A stretch of 64,000 nucleotides of DNA from Euryarchaeota archaeon UBA202 (GCA_002502685.1 DAQA01000029.1:4957-68956); one strand, 5' to 3'; numbered from the stretch's first letter, positions 7,170 through 61,432 are shown. Notes: generated by a model not told the origin, from the sequence alone. Numbers and translations: made by a program.

Positions 7170-8480
7170 ATGTTTGTGAAAATATCTATGTCCCATAAAA
7201 AAATAAAAATGTTATGTACCCTAAGCATAATTGCAGCAATATCTTTACTACCCTTGCATGCCACTGGCAATTATCTCCACAAAAATCCAAGCACCAATAA
7301 TGAAAATCACACATCAGAAAGACAAGCAATAGAGCTATTCAAAAAAGCACTTCCTTCCGCCACCTCCTATCAAGGCCACCTTCGTGTCTATATAGTAGAA
7401 CCCACATCGCGATGGAACGATTATTCTAACAAACCCTACCATTTTGGCCTTCTAGATTTCGCATTTAATGACAAGCTCTCAATACCCTACGGCGAAACGT
7501 ACAATACCACGCTAACCTGGGATCCAAACGCAGAAGGATACAGTGGAATAACTGAAGATAACCTCATGGTCATAGCCGTACTTTTTAATCCTGAAGTAAA
7601 ACAAGCCTATGCACAACCCCCCATGGGCAATAAATTCACTGCCCATTATGTCGATGCATGCGCTGGTTCAGTCCCAGGAGGCCAGGGCCATAATGTCGTA
7701 ACTGATGTTTTTACTCATACAGTTTTTGTTGAAGAGGCAACCGCCACCTGGTGTCCCTATTGCCCTGCTATGTCTGAAGCACTTTACACAATCTATAAGT
7801 CAAGAAGCTATCCCTTTTATTTTGTATCCCTAGTGGGAGATAAAAATACAGAGGCAAATGAAAGATTGCAAAATGATTACAATCTCTATGGATACCCCAC
7901 GTCATTTTTTGATGGAGGAGTGAAGGTTTTAGTAGGGGGATATGATGATGAAAAATATTATCGATCAAGGATTGAATCTAGTGGGCAGAAGGATGTTCAT
8001 GATTTGAATTTCAGTCTTTCTGTTGAGTGGCAACAGAATAGTAGTATTTCTATTGATTTGCAAATCACCAATAATGAAGAAACCGAAAATAGCCCCCCCG
8101 GGACGCCCACGATAACTGGGATTACAGAAGGAAAGATTGGCACTGAATATGAATATACCTTTGTTTCTACAGATCCTGATGGCGATGATATTTACTATTG
8201 GGTACAATGGGGTGAAGGCTGCCCCAGTCTAGAGTGGATTGGTCCCTATAGCTCAGGAGAAGAAGTGACAATGAATTATACCTGGGCTAATAAGGGGGAT
8301 TATAACATAAGTGTTAAAGCAAAAGATACTAATGATGCTGAAAGTGAATGGGGAACACTAGAGATACACATGCCTAAATCAATGGCAAAGTCTTTCTTTA
8401 ATGTTATCTGGCTTCTTCTTGATAAATTTAGGGAAAGTTTTCCATTTCTTCACTATTTTTTTACCCATCTAGGCATCTAG
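7170..8480 (+). CDS. Secreted thioredoxin-fold protein (CPYC active site) with a C-terminal PKD domain.
   Basis: Signal peptide MLCTLSIIAAISLLPLHA. ATATWCPYCPAM and a cis-Pro loop GYPTSFFDGG. C-terminal PKD: DPDGDDIYYWVQWGEG...GPYSSGE...NISVKAKDTNDAESEWG, followed by the tail FFNVIWLLLDKF. Confidence 0.6.
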   Translation: MFVKISMSHKKIKMLCTLSIIAAISLLPLHATGNYLHKNPSTNNENHTSERQAIELFKKALPSATSYQGHLRVYIVEPTSRWNDYSNKPYHFGLLDFAFNDKLSIPYGETYNTTLTWDPNAEGYSGITEDNLMVIAVLFNPEVKQAYAQPPMGNKFTAHYVDACAGSVPGGQGHNVVTDVFTHTVFVEEATATWCPYCPAMSEALYTIYKSRSYPFYFVSLVGDKNTEANERLQNDYNLYGYPTSFFDGGVKVLVGGYDDEKYYRSRIESSGQKDVHDLNFSLSVEWQQNSSISIDLQITNNEETENSPPGTPTITGITEGKIGTEYEYTFVSTDPDGDDIYYWVQWGEGCPSLEWIGPYSSGEEVTMNYTWANKGDYNISVKAKDTNDAESEWGTLEIHMPKSMAKSFFNVIWLLLDKFRESFPFLHYFFTHLGI

Positions 8481-52479: not shown

Positions 52480-53472
52480 GATTTAATATCCTCCAAGTTT
52501 TCCAATAGACCTATAGTTTAACAAGTTTGTGTATAGAAAATATATAAGCTATATAAATTATATATTAATTTATTACCTAATAAAATAACGGTCCTATCTT
52601 TTTGTATGCCGTACTCTAAAAGCATATTAGTGATTAATCATCATGATTTTTCATGTTTCTTTCTAAAATATCTTTTTATGTCTATCTTTTTATTAAATTT
52701 ATAAATGTATAAATAAATAGTTTTTTTATATTCAGAAAGGTACGGGCAAGACACAATAATTATATGTGAATCCTAGCTGATTAGTTAAAGTAGATCTTCG
52801 GCAAGATACTTATAACCTAAAAACGGTTTATCCTTCATTCCAAAATAGAGGAAAAAAAATGGAGGCAAAGGGTAGGGGAGGAAAGCAAAAAAGAGTGCGG
52901 TAGGAAAGACCTCGCCCATACCCTATTTATCTATTTATTCTCTTTATGTATATATAATATATATGTGACAAACATCGAAGCATATAACACAAATATCGAA
53001 GGCTAGGTATCCCTATCCCTTCCCTATTTTTTTCATATTTTGTGTGGAAAATGTTAAAAACCATTAGTGGTTATAGATTATGGGAGAGGCAGTGGAGAAC
53101 ATGATAGGGTAGGGAAGTTTCCATGGGCAGGTATCCAGAGGAATCATTCTTTTGTGAAATATTCCTCTAACTTTTCTATTATCTGCCCTTACTCTCTAGT
53201 TTCCTACCAGCTTGGGAATCGACCTTCTTCTCTACCTCTCTCTTATTTCCACTACATTCTTTCGATACTATATAAGTATTATTAATTTTTTCAGAGAAAC
53301 ATGATCCTTATTGATTCTCTATATTTCCAATATTTATTTACACAACGTTTGGTTTATGGGAAACAAAAATACAGTCTTTTTAGTAGTTCAAACATTTAAA
53401 TAATTGAGGTGATTGAAAATGGAAAGGATAATCATAACTGGTTTGTGTGTATTCCTACTCTCATTATGTCCC

Positions 53473-53770: not shown

Positions 53771-53997
53771 AAGAGAAGGTATATTCTCTTAGCTATTATC
53801 CTTTTTTTTGAATTCTCTTGTTTAACTCATCTTTTTTGACTGTTATCTTCTAACATCGCCTAGGCCATAAATTTTCAAAACAATATTCTTTATCTATTAC
53901 AAAAAGATAGTTTACTAACTTCATTAGATATTAATAAATAATATTTATTGTTATTTTTACCCCTATTCACTTACATTAATATATACCTTTATGGGCT

Positions 53998-54056
53998 TTG
54001 CACATAAAACCCCCACTTTATGTGCAAAATGCAATTCTGCACATAAACTCTTATTT
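53998..54056. repeat. Perfect 12-bp inverted repeat hairpin (TTTGCACATAAA-8 nt-TTTATGTGCAAA) plus a third partial copy. It shares its 13-mer with the two direct GTTTATGTGCAAA copies at the 3' end of the transposase gene (58636-58680).
   Basis: Read directly: ctTTGCACATAAAacccccacTTTATGTGCAAAatgcaattcTGCACATAAACtc. Compare gaGTTTATGTGCAAAttcagactagattaaGTTTATGTGCAAAgcc at 58636-58680. Confidence 0.6.
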
Positions 54057-54457
54057 TAATGCAGAAATACAAAGGTCAATTGTTGGATACAGTAGTTGGA
54101 AAAGTTGATATATTTAGTTCGGTCAAGAAATGAGAAAGACAAAAAGGATGCTAATAAAATTGGTCTTGGGTAGGAGGAGTAATGAAAGCACAATATTACA
54201 TCTTCCGAAGAAAATGTGTACTTTATTGCCTACCCCCAACTTTATTTAATCATAGCGTTATCCCCTTTGTCTTTCTCAAGATTATAATCAACAAGTTCTT
54301 CTTAACTTTTACCCTCTAGAATAATTGTCAAAAATATTAACATTAGAATTTTTCGATAATTGTACTAAAACATCCGATGCTTGTGCCATACACCATTTAT
54401 ATTTTTCAATGTCTTTCTTATTTGCCTGCCCCGCTTTGGGGTCAGGAGGAGATATAA

Positions 54458-55201
54458 ATGAAAGCAAACAAAGAAAAAATAGTAAAAAGAAAGAAAATAT
54501 CTGTTGTACTGGCACTAGCAGGTATCCTTTTGATACCCGCAATAATAATGCCAGTAAGTGCAGAAGAACCTGAGTTGCCGGAACCAGATAACGAGGGAGA
54601 CATTATATGGGCTGATGCAGGGCGCATACCAGGTGTATCAGGATGGGACCATTCCCAATTACATGTAGGTTCTAGTTCCTGCATCGAGGCTGATCCTCAC
54701 ACTGAAAAATGGCCTAGTCCTTGGAATCATACACTTCCATCTCTTATACCCAACTGGAAATTAAAAGAGTTAGAAGATGATTATGGAAGGGTGGAATATA
54801 CAGATATAAATGAAACGTACTATGAATATAAAGAAGCGGAGCCTAAACCCGGGGATAAAGGACATGTGGCCATGGGTTATGGGGAGGTAGGAACTCAGCA
54901 AATTAACCGAGACAAAGCTGTTGATTTTGTAGAGGAACAAGAAAATGACAGTAGAAAATTTGATTTAATATCGTACTGGAAATGGAACACAAAACAGATA
55001 GATGAAGATGATGCTGCTATCCCTGAGAGAGGTAGAAAATATTACTGCTCCGAGTTAGTGTGGGCTTCTTACGCATACGAGGAGGTAGGAATAGATTTAG
55101 ATCCAGATCTTTTTAAAGTTACACCTCAGGAACTCTACGATGAAATTGATGATGATAGCAATGATCATGAAATCTACTGGCAATATAGGCAACCGATTTA
55201 G
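54458..55201 (+). CDS. Secreted permuted-papain-fold peptidase/amidase, YiiX/YebB (C92/DUF830)-like.
   Basis: Signal peptide. GDIIWADAG and YYCSELVWASYAYEEVG match E. coli YiiX GDIIF...YCSEVVWKVY. Confidence 0.5.
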   Translation: MKANKEKIVKRKKISVVLALAGILLIPAIIMPVSAEEPELPEPDNEGDIIWADAGRIPGVSGWDHSQLHVGSSSCIEADPHTEKWPSPWNHTLPSLIPNWKLKELEDDYGRVEYTDINETYYEYKEAEPKPGDKGHVAMGYGEVGTQQINRDKAVDFVEEQENDSRKFDLISYWKWNTKQIDEDDAAIPERGRKYYCSELVWASYAYEEVGIDLDPDLFKVTPQELYDEIDDDSNDHEIYWQYRQPI

Positions 55202-55283
55202 TCCCTCCAGTATTTAACCAAATGAGACATCTCCTCTTTCCTTTTTTTTTTATTCCACGGCAAAAAGCTTAAATAAAAAAAAT

Positions 55284-56828
55284 ATGATGGGTAACAATAT
55301 GAAAAAAATGATGATTGTTCTTGTATTTTTTTCACTTTTAATAGTATTGCTTTCTTTCTCATTAAATTTATATGGAAGTGAAAGAAGAAATAACGATGAA
55401 TGGAACAAATTGTTGGGTGGATATAACTCTGATGGTGCACAATCAATTGCACTAACAGAAGACGAAGGTTACATAATTGGGGGACTTACAAAGAGCTATG
55501 GTTCTGGAAGTTGGGATGTCTGGTTAATAAAAACGGATGAAGATGGTAATATGCTGTGGAACAGAACATTTGGGGGAAAAGAAGAGGATAGTGCAGAATC
55601 CGTTATCCAAACGAAAGACGGAGGATATCTTTTGTGTGGATATACATTCTCTTTTGGAACCGGGAGTGCAGACATATGGATTATAAAAACTGATGATGAT
55701 GGAAACATGCTTTGGAATAAAACATTTGGAGGAGAAAACAATGATTATGGGCAATCTATTATACAAACAAATGATGGTGGATATGCTCTCATTGCAACAA
55801 CTCTTTCTTTTGGATCTACAGACAATGATAGAGATATCTGGCTGATAAAAACAGATGGAAATGGAGATATTATGTGGGATAAAATCTTTGGTGGATCAGG
55901 GATAGAATGGGGTTCTGATTTAATTCAAACAAACGATGGAGGGTATTGTATTGTAGGTTCTACCGCCTCTTATGGTGCAGGAGGATGGGATGTTTGGCTC
56001 TTAAAGTTGGATGAAAACGGTGATGTAATCTGGGAGAAAACTATCGGAGACGAAGGAATGGATGATGGAAGTTGTATAGAACAAACAAGAGATATGGGAT
56101 TTATTATTACGGGATCTTCTACATCGTATAGCTCAGGGGGGTGGAATAATGCTTTATTAATAAAAACTGATCAGAATGGGAATACGCAATGGATAAATGT
56201 GTTCGGAGATTATGTGGGAAAACTTGCTGAAGATGCCGGTAATTCTGTTATTGAGACTCAGGATAGTTACCTTATTGCTGGAATTACTTCATCGTACGAT
56301 ATCGGGGCTTTTGATGCATGGCTGTTAAAGATAGATAAAAAAGGAAATGAGATATGGAATAAGACATTTGGAGGACGAGAAAGAGAAACAGCCAATTGTG
56401 TGTTACAAGCAAAAGATGGAAGCTATATTATATTAGGGGAAACAAATACTTATGGACAAAAAAAAGATGCATGGTTAATAAAGTGTCAGGATTACCCTCC
56501 GCCAGAAATTAAGATAGAAAGACCAAAACCAAACTATCTCTATCTTTTTGGTAAGGAAATATTACCTCTCAGACAAACAATAATACTAGGGGGAATTATC
56601 GTCACTTCTGAGGTATATGATCTTCAGAATAAGATAGATAGAGTAGAATACTATCTAACTGGGCAAGACTATGAAACCGAGCCCAGGGCAATCATTCATT
56701 CACCCCCATTTAATTGGGAATGGACTTCCTCTGCATTTGGGTTATATGAAATAACAGCTGGTGCATATTATGGAAATGCTGGTTCCGTAGCAGTAGATAC
56801 AGTCAATGTAAGAATTTTTAACATCTAG
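55284..56828 (+). CDS. Secreted beta-propeller protein built from about 8 SBBP-type repeats.
   Basis: Signal peptide. Repeating roughly 47-aa unit DGGY.I.G.T.S.G.G..D.WLIKTD.DGN.LWNKTFGG..D...S.IQT. Confidence 0.6.
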   Translation: MMGNNMKKMMIVLVFFSLLIVLLSFSLNLYGSERRNNDEWNKLLGGYNSDGAQSIALTEDEGYIIGGLTKSYGSGSWDVWLIKTDEDGNMLWNRTFGGKEEDSAESVIQTKDGGYLLCGYTFSFGTGSADIWIIKTDDDGNMLWNKTFGGENNDYGQSIIQTNDGGYALIATTLSFGSTDNDRDIWLIKTDGNGDIMWDKIFGGSGIEWGSDLIQTNDGGYCIVGSTASYGAGGWDVWLLKLDENGDVIWEKTIGDEGMDDGSCIEQTRDMGFIITGSSTSYSSGGWNNALLIKTDQNGNTQWINVFGDYVGKLAEDAGNSVIETQDSYLIAGITSSYDIGAFDAWLLKIDKKGNEIWNKTFGGRERETANCVLQAKDGSYIILGETNTYGQKKDAWLIKCQDYPPPEIKIERPKPNYLYLFGKEILPLRQTIILGGIIVTSEVYDLQNKIDRVEYYLTGQDYETEPRAIIHSPPFNWEWTSSAFGLYEITAGAYYGNAGSVAVDTVNVRIFNI

Positions 56829-56973
56829 AAATTTGATTTTCGGTGAAAGTTGGCAAAGACCAAAAAAAAAACGCATCAACTTTTCCAACTACATTAATAA
56901 AAAATGGAAGTGAAACTTGATTAAAATTTATAACCGATTTAAATTTGTATATTTGGCAATAATTGAGCTATTT

Positions 56974-57204
56974 TTATTTGATATACCAAAAGTTAGCTCT
57001 CCCTTTTTTTTCTCTGTATATCCCAATGTCTCGTTTTGAAAGATTAACAAGATGTTTTTTTGCTGTCAGCCAGCTCATATTTCCATAATCTGCTACTTCA
57101 TTTGTAGTCAGAGGGCGACGTGCATTTTCTAATATTTCACAGGTTAGCCGTTCATAGGGGGTCAATGAACTTAAATTGCATCCTACTTTTTTTGCTTTAA
57201 TCAA
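56974..57204 (-). CDS. Small winged-HTH DNA-binding protein.
   Basis: LTCEILENARRPLTTNEVADYGNMSWLTAKKHLVNLS is HTH-like. Overlaps the upstream small ORF. Confidence 0.35.
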   Translation of the reverse strand: MIKAKKVGCNLSSLTPYERLTCEILENARRPLTTNEVADYGNMSWLTAKKHLVNLSKRDIGIYREKKGRANFWYIK

Positions 57205-57445
57205 TTATCTCACCTACCATGATTTTTTTATTAACTTTTTCTATGTATGCAAGATTGACAATAAATCTCATTTTATTACCTTTCCTAACATCTAATATAT
57301 CCGATATCTTTTTAGGGAGTCTGACTAAAAATTGTTCGCCATCAAAACTAATAGTGGCTGCTTTCTCAATTTTTTCTTCCCTATATGCACCCTCATCAAG
57401 TATACTTTCGATTTGTTCTTTCATTTTATATAGATAATCGTACAA
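57197..57445 (-). CDS. Small AbrB/SpoVT-like (swapped-hairpin) protein.
   Basis: FLVRLPKKISDILDVRKGNKMRFIV is loosely AbrB-like. Confidence 0.3.
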   Translation of the reverse strand: MYDYLYKMKEQIESILDEGAYREEKIEKAATISFDGEQFLVRLPKKISDILDVRKGNKMRFIVNLAYIEKVNKKIMVGEIID

Positions 57446-57571
57446 TTTATTTATATAATTTTTGATAAAAAACCTATAATTCGTACGATATATTATTAAA
57501 AAATAAAAACTTTTAAATACTCTTAATGCATTATAATCGTACGAAATAATTAGTATATATTAATAATATAA

Positions 57572-58663
57572 ATGAAGAAACAAACTCATCTTGACCAATG
57601 GGGTGTTTGTGGCACCCCAAAGGTCTGGAGGTCTGATAGAATGAGTATCAAACCCCTAAAAGATATAGAAAAAAAAGTAAATAAAGGTTCATATCCTCAA
57701 GATTGGGTAGCATACAATCTAGCACAAACACAAGAAAAACTCCTATTTATTGAATTATTACATGAGCTAACATCACAGATACCGCAACCAAAATATAAAG
57801 GAAACGGGAGACCTCCAGCAAACTTTGGAGAAATGGTTTTCACGTGTTGTCTCAAGACTTATCTTGATTTTAGTAGTAGGAGAAGTGAATCAGACATCAA
57901 ATTAGTAAAACAGCTTGGTTATATCACCCATGCTTCACATTTCAATACCATCCTTAAATATCTTAACCAACCAATTATGAAAAAAGTTTTAGCAAAGCTC
58001 ATTGCTTTATCATCTTTACCCCTTAAAGAAATTGAAAAGGATTTCACCATGGATGCCTCAGGTTTTAGCACGGCAATGGTGTGTAACTGGAATAAATCAC
58101 AAAAAATCCACTCGGAGAAAAGACTTTTTAAGAAGGCTCATGTGATGAGCGGTGTTAAAACCAATATCATAACTCACGTTGAGATTACAGATGGATATGT
58201 CCATGATAGTCTGATGCTAGAAAAACTCGTAGTTTCGACAAATAAACATTTTAGGATGGAGGAAGTGAGTGCTGATAAAGGTTATTCATCAGAAAAAAAC
58301 CTCCAGATAATTGCGAAAACTGGGGCTGTACCCTATGTTTTATTTAAAATTAATGCTAAAAAAACGAAGGACAGACTTCCTATCTGGCGTACCATGCTTC
58401 TATTTTTTAGGGAGAATAAAGAAGAGTTTATGGAACATTATCATAAGAGAAACAATGCAGAATCTGTGTTCTCGATGATGAAACGGAAGTTTGGTGGATT
58501 TGTTCGAGCACGGAAATCACTTGCACAGGAAAACGAGGTCTTATGTAAAGTGCTCTGCCACAACATTTGTGTCCTTATCCAAGAAATGTTCGAGTTGGGA
58601 ATAAAAATTGATTTTGAAGAAATCGTCAGGGATGAGTTTATGTGCAAATTCAGACTAGATTAA
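57572..58663 (+). mobile_element. DDE transposase of the IS4/IS5 superfamily (DDE_Tnp_1). The true start may be the internal MSIKPL.
   Basis: DDE residues in MDASGF, ADKGYSS and the Y-x2-R-x3-E-x6-K motif YHKRNNAESVFSMMKRK. Repeated 13-mer at the 3' end. Confidence 0.8.
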
Positions 58664-58667
58664 GTTT

Positions 58668-58859
58668 ATGTGCAAAGCCACCTTTATGATTATGTTAATT
58701 ATCATGGGAATTAAGGTTCGTGTTCGTTTGTGTGGCGACAGCCTCGCAATAACACTACCCCGTCAGGTTGCCAAGTTGCATAATATTGAGAAGGGAAACT
58801 ATATGGAGATAAGTCCTATTGGCACGGGTGAGTTCAAGATAAAGAAGATAGAGGGATAA
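58668..58859 (+). CDS. Small AbrB/MazE-like swapped-hairpin protein (63 aa).
   Basis: VRLCGDSLAITLPRQVAKLHNIEKGNYMEI. Confidence 0.4.
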   Translation: MCKATFMIMLIIMGIKVRVRLCGDSLAITLPRQVAKLHNIEKGNYMEISPIGTGEFKIKKIEG

Positions 58860-60187: not shown

Positions 60188-61432
60188 TTATCCTGTCCAG
60201 TGCTGACCAACCAGGATCATATCCAGGATATTAACCACCCCGTCACAGTTCACATCAGCCGATATCCAACAAGGTGGCCCTGCCTCACCCCAATCCTGAC
60301 CAATAAGGATAAGGTCAAGAATATTCACCGAATCATCATTATTAACATCCCAAGGTTCATTCGGGAGAACAGTAACACTTGCATTTTCAATAATAACAGG
60401 CACGGGTGAACCATTAGGCTGACCCACCACCACATTTGAGAGATTAAACCAAGAGGTACCATTGGCATCAAGGGGGGCAGTGAAATTAACATAGACTGCT
60501 TCCCCAGAATGGATCACATTATCACCAGGAGTGGTAATAACAACATAAACATCAGTAATTGTTCCATTAATATTATCCACTATTCCTGGATTAAAGTAGG
60601 TACTGGAGCCATAAAAAAGACTGCCTTCATGGACTGACCCTGCCTGGAAAAGGGTGAGGTCAAAAGTGAGGTCAAACTGCACACCTGCGATAGGCTCCGC
60701 TGGGTCAACCTCAATGAATAGGGTGAATCCATTACCTGCATAAATCTCGTTATATGTTAAGAGAGGATTGATTTTAACGATAGTGTCCGTGGGTACAATC
60801 AGTGGTGCAATGATAGTTATATTGTCAATATACCAACCGTATTCATGCCCAGTACCATCTGCAGTGTGAAGAAATGCAAATCTTATCCATTTTCCTTCAA
60901 AAGGTAATAGATTCACATGGATAGGTGTCCATATTACTGATTTCCAGGTAAAATGCTCTGTGATATTCTCCCACGGCTCCTAGGATTCCTGGCTTTCATT
61001 ATAAATCGAAACTTCTACTTGTCCATAATCTGGGGAGTAAAAATAGTCAAAATAGTGCCAGAATCGAAGTTCTAATATGTCCCCCTCGGTCACATAGGGT
61101 AATTGTACAGGAGGGCTAATCAAGCGACTGTCAGTATAATCTGGATATTTTTCCCCGAGGATTGTTCCAGCACAGTTTTCACCCGATGGACAGCCACCGG
61201 GACCCGCAGTTGGTGCTCCAATCTGCCAAATGCCATTGGTTGTATACCATTCCCCCCATCCAGATTCAAAATCTTCTTCAAATATTACTATATGAGATGC
61301 CTGTATCGGATTTGGTATTATCATTAGAGATAAAATTAATACTGTAACTATTCCACTTGATAATACCAATATCTTTGTTCTATTACCATCAATTATATCC
61401 ATTTTTTTCCTCCCTGCTATATTCCTTATCAA
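60188..61432 (-). pseudogene. Membrane-anchored MAM/lectin-like plus dockerin-repeat protein interrupted by one in-frame TAG. Track ORFs 60980..61432 and 60188..60916 are in the same frame.
   Basis: Reading through the TAG at about 60977-60979 gives continuous ...VEVSIYNESQES*EPWENITEHFTWKSVIWTPIHVNLLPFEGKWIRFAFLHTADGTGHEYGWYIDNI... C-terminal dockerin-like pair DVNNDDSVNILDLILIGQ / DVNCDGVVNILDMILVGQ. Confidence 0.5.

Follow-up and report, generated by a model that had tools for sequence, protein, structure and literature searches.

Introduction

IS903 uses a single 18-bp inverted repeat (IR). IS903B, for which we used the copy on plasmid Rts1, is 1,057 bp long, has the tips GGCTTTGTTGAATAAATC and is filled by one open reading frame (ORF). 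The IS903 group of the IS5 family is described as having 9-bp target-site duplications (TSDs) and a length of ~1,050 bp (PMC3281130 Table 2), and insertion sequences (ISs) of this group are known to carry outward promoters (PMC3281130). Here we analyze a 64,000-nucleotide stretch of DNA from Euryarchaeota archaeon UBA202 (GCA_002502685.1 DAQA01000029.1:4957-68956), called the window below, in which a 4,686-bp element at 53994-58679 resembles IS903 and IS903B: its transposase matches NCBIfam model NF033579 over the full length, the D/D/E and YREK blocks are shared, the duplication is 9 bp, the tips read GGCTTTG, and the transposase gene ends close to one IR. The element differs from IS903 in having 3.6 kb and four other genes between the left IR (IRL) and the transposase gene, extra subterminal repeats at both ends and an archaeal host. 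The original prediction for this region, made by a model from the sequence alone, had described a transposon-like region bounded by inverted 13-mers and carrying a DDE transposase plus secreted-protein cargo, and had left it as a composite element, a cargo-carrying element or a solo IS end near 54 kb.

Cargo-carrying transposons are the main bacterial route for shuffling resistance and defence genes. In Tn903-type composites, IS903-type ends mobilize genes that have no part in transposition, and the IS903B copy used here adjoins aph(3')-Ia. Such composites need two complete IS copies, whereas the window element has one transposase gene and ~60 bp of IS-related DNA at its left, so the composite option of the original prediction does not hold. 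Tn7 generates a 5-bp duplication. Tn7-like elements, now also reported from archaea in a 2025 preprint, resemble the window element in having several repeats per end and cargo rich in restriction-modification (R-M) and defence genes (Benler et al. 2021, PMC8649781; bioRxiv 10.1101/2025.07.27.667033). The window element, in contrast, is without TnsA/B/C/D-type machinery, has a transposase of another branch and a 9-bp duplication, and shows no evident dedicated attachment site. The transporter IS (tIS) of ISfinder and TnCentral combines IRs, TSD, a single transposase and passenger genes in one unit, as does the window element. TnCentral (2021) restricts tIS to the IS1595 and IS66 families, whereas the window element is IS5/IS903-like and its whole clade bears cargo in the sample examined here. 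Aloposons of Heimdallarchaeia are likewise archaeal, transposon-like and said to carry cargo (PMC8813620); we rejected identity with them because their integration at tRNA genes, tandem giant genes and ParA-like ATPase (PMC8813620) are all absent here. Passenger-carrying composite transposons are among the classes that a 2019 survey of mobile elements integrated in thaumarchaeal genomes gave as still undetected in archaea (PMC6563490), and full-text literature searches, which did not cover ISfinder, returned no description of the window lineage.

Results

One insertion delimited by perfect ends and a 9-bp duplication

IRL and the right IR (IRR) of the element (Table 1) are complementary at 15 of 15 positions, and a perfect 9-bp direct repeat abuts both IR tips. 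When we searched for IRs matching at 14 or more of 15 positions, 1-12 kb apart and flanked by an exact 9-bp duplication, the real window gave this one pair and 40 first-order Markov random windows gave none; the estimated expectation for the combination is ~5e-4 per window. The 13-mer by itself is not rarer than chance, with 6 window matches at up to two mismatches against 3.1 expected. Because the perfect 9-bp duplication flanks exactly this pair, the repeats at 54 kb and those at 58.6 kb are the two ends of one insertion. The inverted 13-mers had thus pointed to the correct ends, but the true termini lie three bases further out on each side and the TSD had been missed. Removing the element reconstructs the empty site as ...CATTAATATATACCTTTATGATTATGTTAATTATCATGG... 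The GC content of the element is no different from that of its surroundings. It contains five ORFs, including the only transposase gene within 52-61 kb.

We conclude, with a probability of about 0.88, that a single cargo-carrying DDE transposon, intact and recently inserted, occupies 53994-58679 in a Thermoplasmatota chromosome and comes from a distant IS903 (IS5 family) lineage. Having IRs, a TSD, one transposase and passenger genes, without flanking IS copies, it is a tIS by definition. The pairing of the two ends by the TSD, together with relatives delimited in the same way, bears out the cargo-carrying option among those originally put forward. In the mechanism we propose, the transposase would bind terminal and subterminal TTTGCACATAAA sites at both ends, synapse the ends across 4.7 kb and cleave at the GGC tips, and the unit would have inserted whole at 9-bp staggered cuts, as IS903 does. 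All DNA between the ends would be carried along, that is, two secreted-protein cargo genes and a divergent pair of AbrB-like and winged-helix genes, whose products probably control transposase expression via three TCGTACGA-core sites.

A much simpler arrangement has to be weighed against this one: a small ordinary IS at 57.5-58.7 kb, with the 54-kb hairpin as an unrelated solo end or leftover and the genes between them as chromosome. Elements of the IS903 group are typically ~1,050 bp long, and solo IS ends do occur in genomes. However, the 9-bp duplication couples 53985-53993 with 58680-58688, which also disposes of the solo-end option of the original prediction, and there is no IRL-like sequence between 54049 and 57572. 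We further collected 160 loci encoding transposase relatives, half of them from GTDB species genomes and half from JGI metagenomes (80 each; cited by L numbers). Copies with terminal repeats directly upstream of the transposase gene (57572 in the window), which the original prediction had named as the observation that would make the 54-kb hairpin unrelated, are absent from the window and from these loci, and none of the 160 has a genuine left end in the ~1 kb before the gene. One near-transposase GGCTTTGC match, in L131, was considered as the left end of a simple IS and rejected, as it lies inside a coding region without a partner. The same long-range pairing, with a TSD of its own, is found in L002. 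Taken together, these results make a small IS extremely improbable.

Table 1. Features of the element and of the zinc-ribbon genes in related loci. Positions are those of the window unless a locus is named.
Feature	Position	Strand	Remarks
TSD, left copy ACCTTTATG	53985-53993	.	same 9-mer outside both IR tips; IR-plus-TSD pair absent from 40 random windows
IRL GGCTTTGCACATAAA	53994-54008	+	15/15 to IRR; first 7 nucleotides (nt) equal the IS903B tip; two independent assemblies break at 53994
Left-end array, three 12-13-bp repeats	53997-54048	.	presumed transposase-binding sites; three-site layout kept in aligned related elements
Internal 18-bp IR, left arm GTAGTTGGAAAAGTTGAT	54092-54109	+	perfect; brackets both secreted-protein genes
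Cargo gene 1, 247 aa, N-terminal signal/anchor segment	54458-55201	+	invariant GDI, DH and YYCSELVW motifs
Cargo gene 2, 514 aa, secreted	55284-56828	+	seven SBBP-like beta-propeller repeats and a C-terminal immunoglobulin (Ig)-like domain
Internal 18-bp IR, right arm	56875-56892	-	perfect match to left arm
Winged-helix-type protein, 76 aa, second module gene	56974-57204	-	Pfam DUF7342 E=4.5e-4
AbrB/MazE-like protein, first module gene	57197-57445	-	82 aa from TTG or 75 aa from ATG 57425
Three near-palindromic ATAAT-(T)CGTAC(G/A)A-...AT sites	57434-57550	.	candidate operators
DDE transposase, 363 aa, intact	57572-58663	+	Pfam DDE_Tnp_1; NCBIfam NF033579
Right subterminal repeat	58636-58648	+	inside transposase ORF; codes for conserved C-terminal EFMCK
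IRR TTTATGTGCAAAGCC	58665-58679	-	transposase stop codon 16 bp from tip
TSD, right copy ACCTTTATG	58680-58688	.	same 9-mer as left copy
Zinc-ribbon slot proteins	L009 9676-9816; L033 9670-9825; L063 9462-9617; L074 968-1147; L129 9463-9627; L159 9534-9686

A transposase akin to that of IS903

The transposase matches Pfam PF01609 (DDE_Tnp_1) with 53.8 bits against a cut-off of 23 (E=2.7e-14). Numbered on the 340-aa form that starts at M24, its catalytic residues D138, D212 and E274 do not vary among 25 relatives, nor does the signature Y267-R270-E274-K281; the longer 363-aa start is backed by an N-terminal 'DQWG...PKVW' segment conserved in homologues. The Y-(2)-R-(3)-E-(6)-K signature and the blocks around the catalytic D, D and E align with IS903B. 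The best NCBIfam model is NF033579 ('transpos_IS5_2'), at 124.8 bits (E=4.5e-36) over positions 3-287 of 289, and we read this as an IS903-type model because IS903B scores 356 bits on it. The first seven nucleotides of the tips, GGCTTTG, are identical in the window element and IS903B. The NF033579 match, the tips and the 9-bp TSD place the transposase as IS5/IS903-like, which is more exact than the IS4/IS5 type of the original prediction. Pfam and NCBIfam scans of all five ORFs gave no Tn3-type TnpA with resolvase and no TnsA/B/C.

These comparisons make the element a distant relative of the IS903 group, of a lineage that sequence features place within or beside that group in the IS5 family. 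The 9-bp target repeats and the 15-bp perfect IR starting with GGC (norm ~15-27 bp) are features of the group, but 4,686 bp and five ORFs do not agree with simple membership, for which a single gene in ~950-1,150 bp is the norm. A total of 4,279 transposase relatives were detected. Close relatives on plasmids were also sought and discarded as a lead, as only annotated plasmid-borne IS5-family transposases ~24% identical to the window transposase turned up.

Related elements carry cargo and move as whole units

Each of the 160 loci was searched for an IR pair with a flanking duplication, which delimited 41 distinct elements, 34 with perfect 9-bp and seven with perfect 10-bp duplications. They span 2,327-11,063 bp, have GGCTTTGC-type tips and in all cases carry the transposase gene at the right end; between IRL and that gene lie 1-10 kb of other genes, and a simple ~1.1-kb IS is not among them. 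Metagenome contigs of 1.2-1.4 kb contain the transposase gene and the right end but never IRL, as expected because a repeated gene beside variable cargo breaks assembly in this way. The closest non-identical relative, recovered from two independent metagenomes (L002/L003), has a transposase 82% identical in amino acid sequence, the same right end, a three-site left end 7.5 kb upstream and its own 9-bp duplication, CATTAAATG. Its interior is wholly different from that of the window element: the 8.5-kb body of L002 encodes Fic, an AAA ATPase, type I HsdS and HsdM and a small ORF. The DNA that blastn finds in common between the window element and its closest relatives is limited to the leftmost ~60 bp, the transposase gene and the right end.

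One 4.36-kb element, whose copies are 86-93% identical in nt sequence, occupies a different site in each of three acidobacterial genomes (L026, L029 and L135), each time with a different duplication, and both alignments with L135 lose homology at the IR tips. The same element at three sites shows that family members move as whole units; transposition of the entire unit, cargo included, is thus supported by these sequence comparisons for family members and not for the window copy. The archaeal hosts are Thermoplasmatales/Thermoplasmata, Woese-, Pace-, Aenigm-, Micr- and Nanoarchaeota and one Hermodarchaeota metagenome-assembled genome (MAG). Among bacteria, relatives occur in Acidobacteriota, Rubrobacteraceae, Rokubacteria, Acidimicrobiales, Planctomycetes and Hyphomicrobium. 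In three Hyphomicrobium genomes (L047, L049 and L050, the first two from cultured strains), a 100%-identical block begins at position 7600 with a GGCTTTGCACAATAAG left end, has the transposase gene 2.4 kb from that end, and continues for >13.3 kb to the end of the fetched locus, while the left flanks differ. This block is a much larger relative of different layout that spread very recently.

The cargo of these relatives is dominated by R-M and defence functions (134 cargo ORFs in 30 other elements; Pfam and PADLOC). The types found are N6, N4 and C5 methyltransferases, HsdS, Eco57I/MmeI-type enzymes, Mrr, NgoPII, TdeIII, GmrSD, PD-(D/E)XK nucleases and Fic/SoFic. A second group of cargo consists of secreted proteins, with NosD/beta-helix proteins, subtilases and propellers. 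The clade therefore appears always to carry cargo, mostly R-M and in some cases secreted proteins.

Several observations weigh against the interpretation given above. The NF033579 score of the transposase falls below the curated cut-off of 140, and the protein is only 19% identical to that of IS903B. Binding of the transposase to the repeats and a regulatory role of the small ORFs are predictions. The apparent constancy of cargo is based on the 160 sampled loci, in many of which the left end is missing or >10 kb away or the contig is truncated, and the Hyphomicrobium block, which extends >10 kb beyond the transposase gene, shows that a layout with the gene abutting the right end is not universal. 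Lastly, no empty site or second copy of the exact element was found by exact-protein look-ups (both flanking genes, the AbrB-like neighbour and the GGPP-synthase orthologues; GGPP, geranylgeranyl diphosphate) or by blastn against related contigs, where the original prediction had suggested looking for empty sites. For that reason, the mobility of the window copy is deduced only from its perfect ends and duplication.

A broader proposal is that these elements make up a large undescribed IS903-related clade with obligate cargo and a fixed modular plan, acting as a cross-domain vehicle for R-M, defence and secreted-protein genes. The plan would comprise a multi-site left end, variable cargo, an optional regulator and a transposase C-terminus overlapping the right end, and the hosts would be Thermoplasmatota, DPANN archaea, Acidobacteriota and others. 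We hold this proposal tentatively, at slightly less than even odds. The window element and its relatives exhibit a minimal vehicle, in which one transposase akin to that of a classic enterobacterial IS transports 1-10 kb of genes for R-M, defence and surface proteins in Thermoplasmatota, DPANN archaea and soil bacteria. Its boundaries, GGCTTTGC...GCAAAGCC with a 9-bp duplication, are easily recognized and could serve for cargo mining, and the compact system of ends and transposase might become a gene-delivery tool for poorly tractable archaea. If an undescribed obligate-cargo clade is confirmed, its members would be the first single-transposase DDE cargo transposons recognized in these archaea. 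The importance of the finding would grow further if obligate cargo, the modular regulator slot and cross-domain spread of R-M genes all hold and prove to be undescribed.

Two features of bacterial relatives were also observed. The duplications of bacterial-type high-GC elements are rich in G/C runs of at least four, among them GGGTGGGGG, TAAGGGGGT, GTTGGGGGG, ACCCCCCTC and GGAGGGGGGA (L026, L029, L129, L074, L063, L037, L147 and L163, from Acidobacteriota, Rokubacteria and unassigned metagenome contigs). This pattern suggests a target preference that has no counterpart in the archaeal members. In the bacterial relative L131, a SWIM-like zinc-finger segment (CTCPDY...CKH; 1-420) precedes the transposase ORF, to which it is possibly fused; it is unlike the archaeal N-terminus.

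Subterminal repeats at both ends

The left hairpin, the third copy near 54 kb and the two direct copies at the right, all described in the original prediction, are present. At the left, the first repeat, TTTGCACATAAA(A) at 53997-54009 (- sense of the 13-mer), is followed by its inverted partner at 54016-54028 and by a third copy with one mismatch at 54036-54048. The first pair forms a hairpin with a 12-bp stem and an 8-nt loop (DNA dG -12.7 kcal/mol, z -3.6; 0 of 200 shuffles equally stable). At the right, GTTTATGTGCAAA occurs twice, exactly and in direct orientation (58636-58648 and 58664-58676), inverted with respect to the outermost left copy. The closest archaeal relatives share one pattern: on the left, the terminal repeat is followed by an inversely oriented copy at ~+24 and a directly oriented one at ~+45, and on the right, by one copy at ~+33. 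In acidobacterial members, the left end bears TTGCCCAAnAAT three times in direct orientation, and the right end has a direct-inverted-direct set. The terminal and subterminal repeats of both ends are candidate binding sites for the transposase, and several such sites per end are reminiscent of more complex transposons.

The 8-nt loop of the left hairpin is variable: it consists of the C-run ACCCCCAC in some elements and of the complementary G-run GTAGGGGG in others (left ends of the window element and L093 compared with L002, L094, L097, L099, L010 and L086). The sequences look as if the loop had been flipped between otherwise palindromic arms.

A small putative regulator module beside the transposase gene

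The winged-helix and AbrB/MazE-like genes overlap on the minus strand and diverge from the transposase gene. The original prediction had noted two small DNA-binding ORFs; they are present, but their homologues in L140 and L120 place them outside the cargo, as a conserved module adjacent to the transposase. Both of those elements have the pair at the same place and in the same order, and its sequence is conserved as well: the 76-aa ORF has homologues 37% and 40% identical, and the AbrB/MazE-like ORF has homologues in the same slot at 41% (L140) and 22% (L120) identity. The L140 homologue of the 82-aa protein matches Pfam MazE_antitoxin at E=0.033, and an AbrB fold for the window protein is a weak assignment. 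The divergent intergenic region is 146 bp long and AT-rich, and the three sites in it share a TCGTAC(G/A)A core. Four of the seven window-wide matches to the near-palindrome (up to two mismatches) fall within these ~120 bp, which makes the TCGTACGA-core sites putative operators of the small-ORF pair.

In many elements, one of three types of small protein is encoded directly upstream of, and divergent from, the transposase gene. In five elements it is a ~65-80-aa protein that matches the AbrB-family regulators 2l66 and 5itj in the PDB (E ~ 0.004). In the window type, a ~60-75-aa winged-helix protein comes after a protein of ~80 aa that bears the AbrB-like motif 'vRiPkki...kG.k..F'; homology between these two AbrB-like types is not significant (hhalign E=0.054). 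The third type is a ~50-aa zinc ribbon (CxxC...CPxCKSPYW), found in six elements from archaea and bacteria at 46-76% identity to the reference. The slot can therefore hold at least three interchangeable types of small DNA-binding protein, and it is not filled in every element. We infer that it is a regulator module conserved as part of the transposon backbone and is not cargo.

Secreted-protein cargo and a possible two-step origin

From left to right, the three-site left end is followed by ~400 bp without a convincing gene and then by the gene for the 247-aa protein. This protein has six homologues; the two with an organism name are from Thermoplasmata/Thermoplasmatales MAGs. Searches of Pfam, NCBIfam and PDB by sequence and profile, and of PDB by Foldseek, returned nothing significant for it; its weak matches are to Pfam Peptidase_C92 (E=0.05 over 20 residues) and to YiiX in PDB 2if6 (E=0.93), and its AlphaFold2 model (pLDDT 53) is too poor for use. 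The order of DH before YYCSELVW fits the His-before-Cys order of permuted papain-like enzymes, so that a permuted papain-like Cys enzyme, with C92/YiiX as the lead, is possible but unproven. The YiiX/C92-like amidase assignment of the original prediction stands on a 20-residue motif at Pfam E=0.05 and is unproven.

The 514-aa protein consists of seven ~52-aa repeats, where eight had been predicted, and a ~110-aa Ig-like tail; it matches the NCBIfam SBBP/LipL53 beta-propeller lipoprotein model at E=8e-10. Over positions 55395-56818, its gene matches a chromosomal gene of related archaeal contigs (L170-L173) at 95% nt identity; there the homologue belongs to a tandem set of propeller paralogues that adjoins the genes for a cold-shock-domain protein and the TATA-binding protein (TBP), in unrelated flanks. 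This high identity within unrelated flanks indicates that the propeller gene is a host-type surface-protein gene that was recently exchanged. A 43%-identical propeller is also cargo of the distant element L128.

An internal 18-bp IR brackets exactly these two cargo genes. It is peculiar to the window element, the longest comparable IR in 32 other elements being 12-13 bp, and was rejected as a family feature because it occurs in this one element among the 33 checked. It may mark the route by which the cargo block was acquired. One such route would be a two-step origin, in which a ~1.9-kb backbone (left end, regulator pair and transposase) later gained the 2.8-kb secreted-protein block, either as a second, non-autonomous IR-bounded element or as the product of inversion or recombination, with the 18-bp IR as the scar. 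Besides the unusual length and position of the IR, the recent exchange of the propeller gene body fits this origin, as do a 16/18 match to the arm close to the L002 left end (482-499) and a JGI contig that stops at ~54094, which suggests that the left ~100 bp recur in that metagenome. On the other hand, no target duplication was found beside the 18-bp arms or their extended 34-bp form, no recombinase is present, and the L002 match is the only further copy of an arm in the window or the related loci. We regard a two-step origin as rather unlikely. As a proposal about cargo acquisition, it does not conflict with the present-day element being one recently inserted cargo transposon.

Host and insertion site

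For the GGPP synthase encoded in the flanking DNA, the named relatives are ~55% identical and come from Thermoplasmata/Thermoplasmatota MAGs; TBP is encoded on related contigs. From these sequence relationships the host is, in all likelihood, an uncultured Thermoplasmatota archaeon that carries the element in its chromosome. An independent 18-kb assembly (L166) runs from PstS through the element to YbjQ and confirms contiguity. Two further assemblies, JGI 3300001749 and Logan SRR5037210, break at base 53994, with neighbouring contigs overlapping by 101 and 30 bp (L001, L167, L168 and L169). Such breaks point to more than one sequence context for the left end in those two samples.

All contigs recovered for the host organism have the element as a single copy at the same site. 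Synteny with the nearest relative, L175 (~82% nt identity), is lost at window position 53459, and that contig has no clean empty site. These observations, with the failure to find an empty site elsewhere, would also fit a former transposon that is now a stable part of the chromosome, kept for its cargo. An old fossil should decay, however, whereas the IRs match at 15 of 15 and the TSD at 9 of 9 positions and the full-length transposase retains its invariant catalytic residues; the branching of two assemblies at the IRL tip also suggests other junctions in the population. We therefore consider a fixed insertion improbable and favour a recently inserted, intact transposon.

On the right, a MazE/AbrB-family gene probably begins at ATG 58704, 25 bp from the element. 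It was called as 58668-58859, as the right repeat supplies an in-frame ATG at 58668 and gene callers chose the resulting 63-aa extended ORF. With the element removed, a TTAATATATA box (53976-53985) would lie ~29 bp upstream of ATG 58704, and the insertion probably cut this gene from its promoter.

Known RNAs or tRNAs were not found near the element. To its left, ~600 bp of ORF-less sequence (52853-53459) are 81-87% identical to L175 16976-17574, the stretch that in this related Thermoplasmatota contig separates the genes for PstS and a class I aminoacyl-tRNA synthetase (Pfam tRNA-synt_1c). The alignment contains one perfectly conserved run of 60 nt and the region has no Rfam match even at E<=1; it is possibly an undescribed non-coding RNA. 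To the right of the insertion, within a run of genes for secreted and surface proteins, 60188-60916 (-) encodes a 242-aa protein with cohesin and dockerin-like domains.

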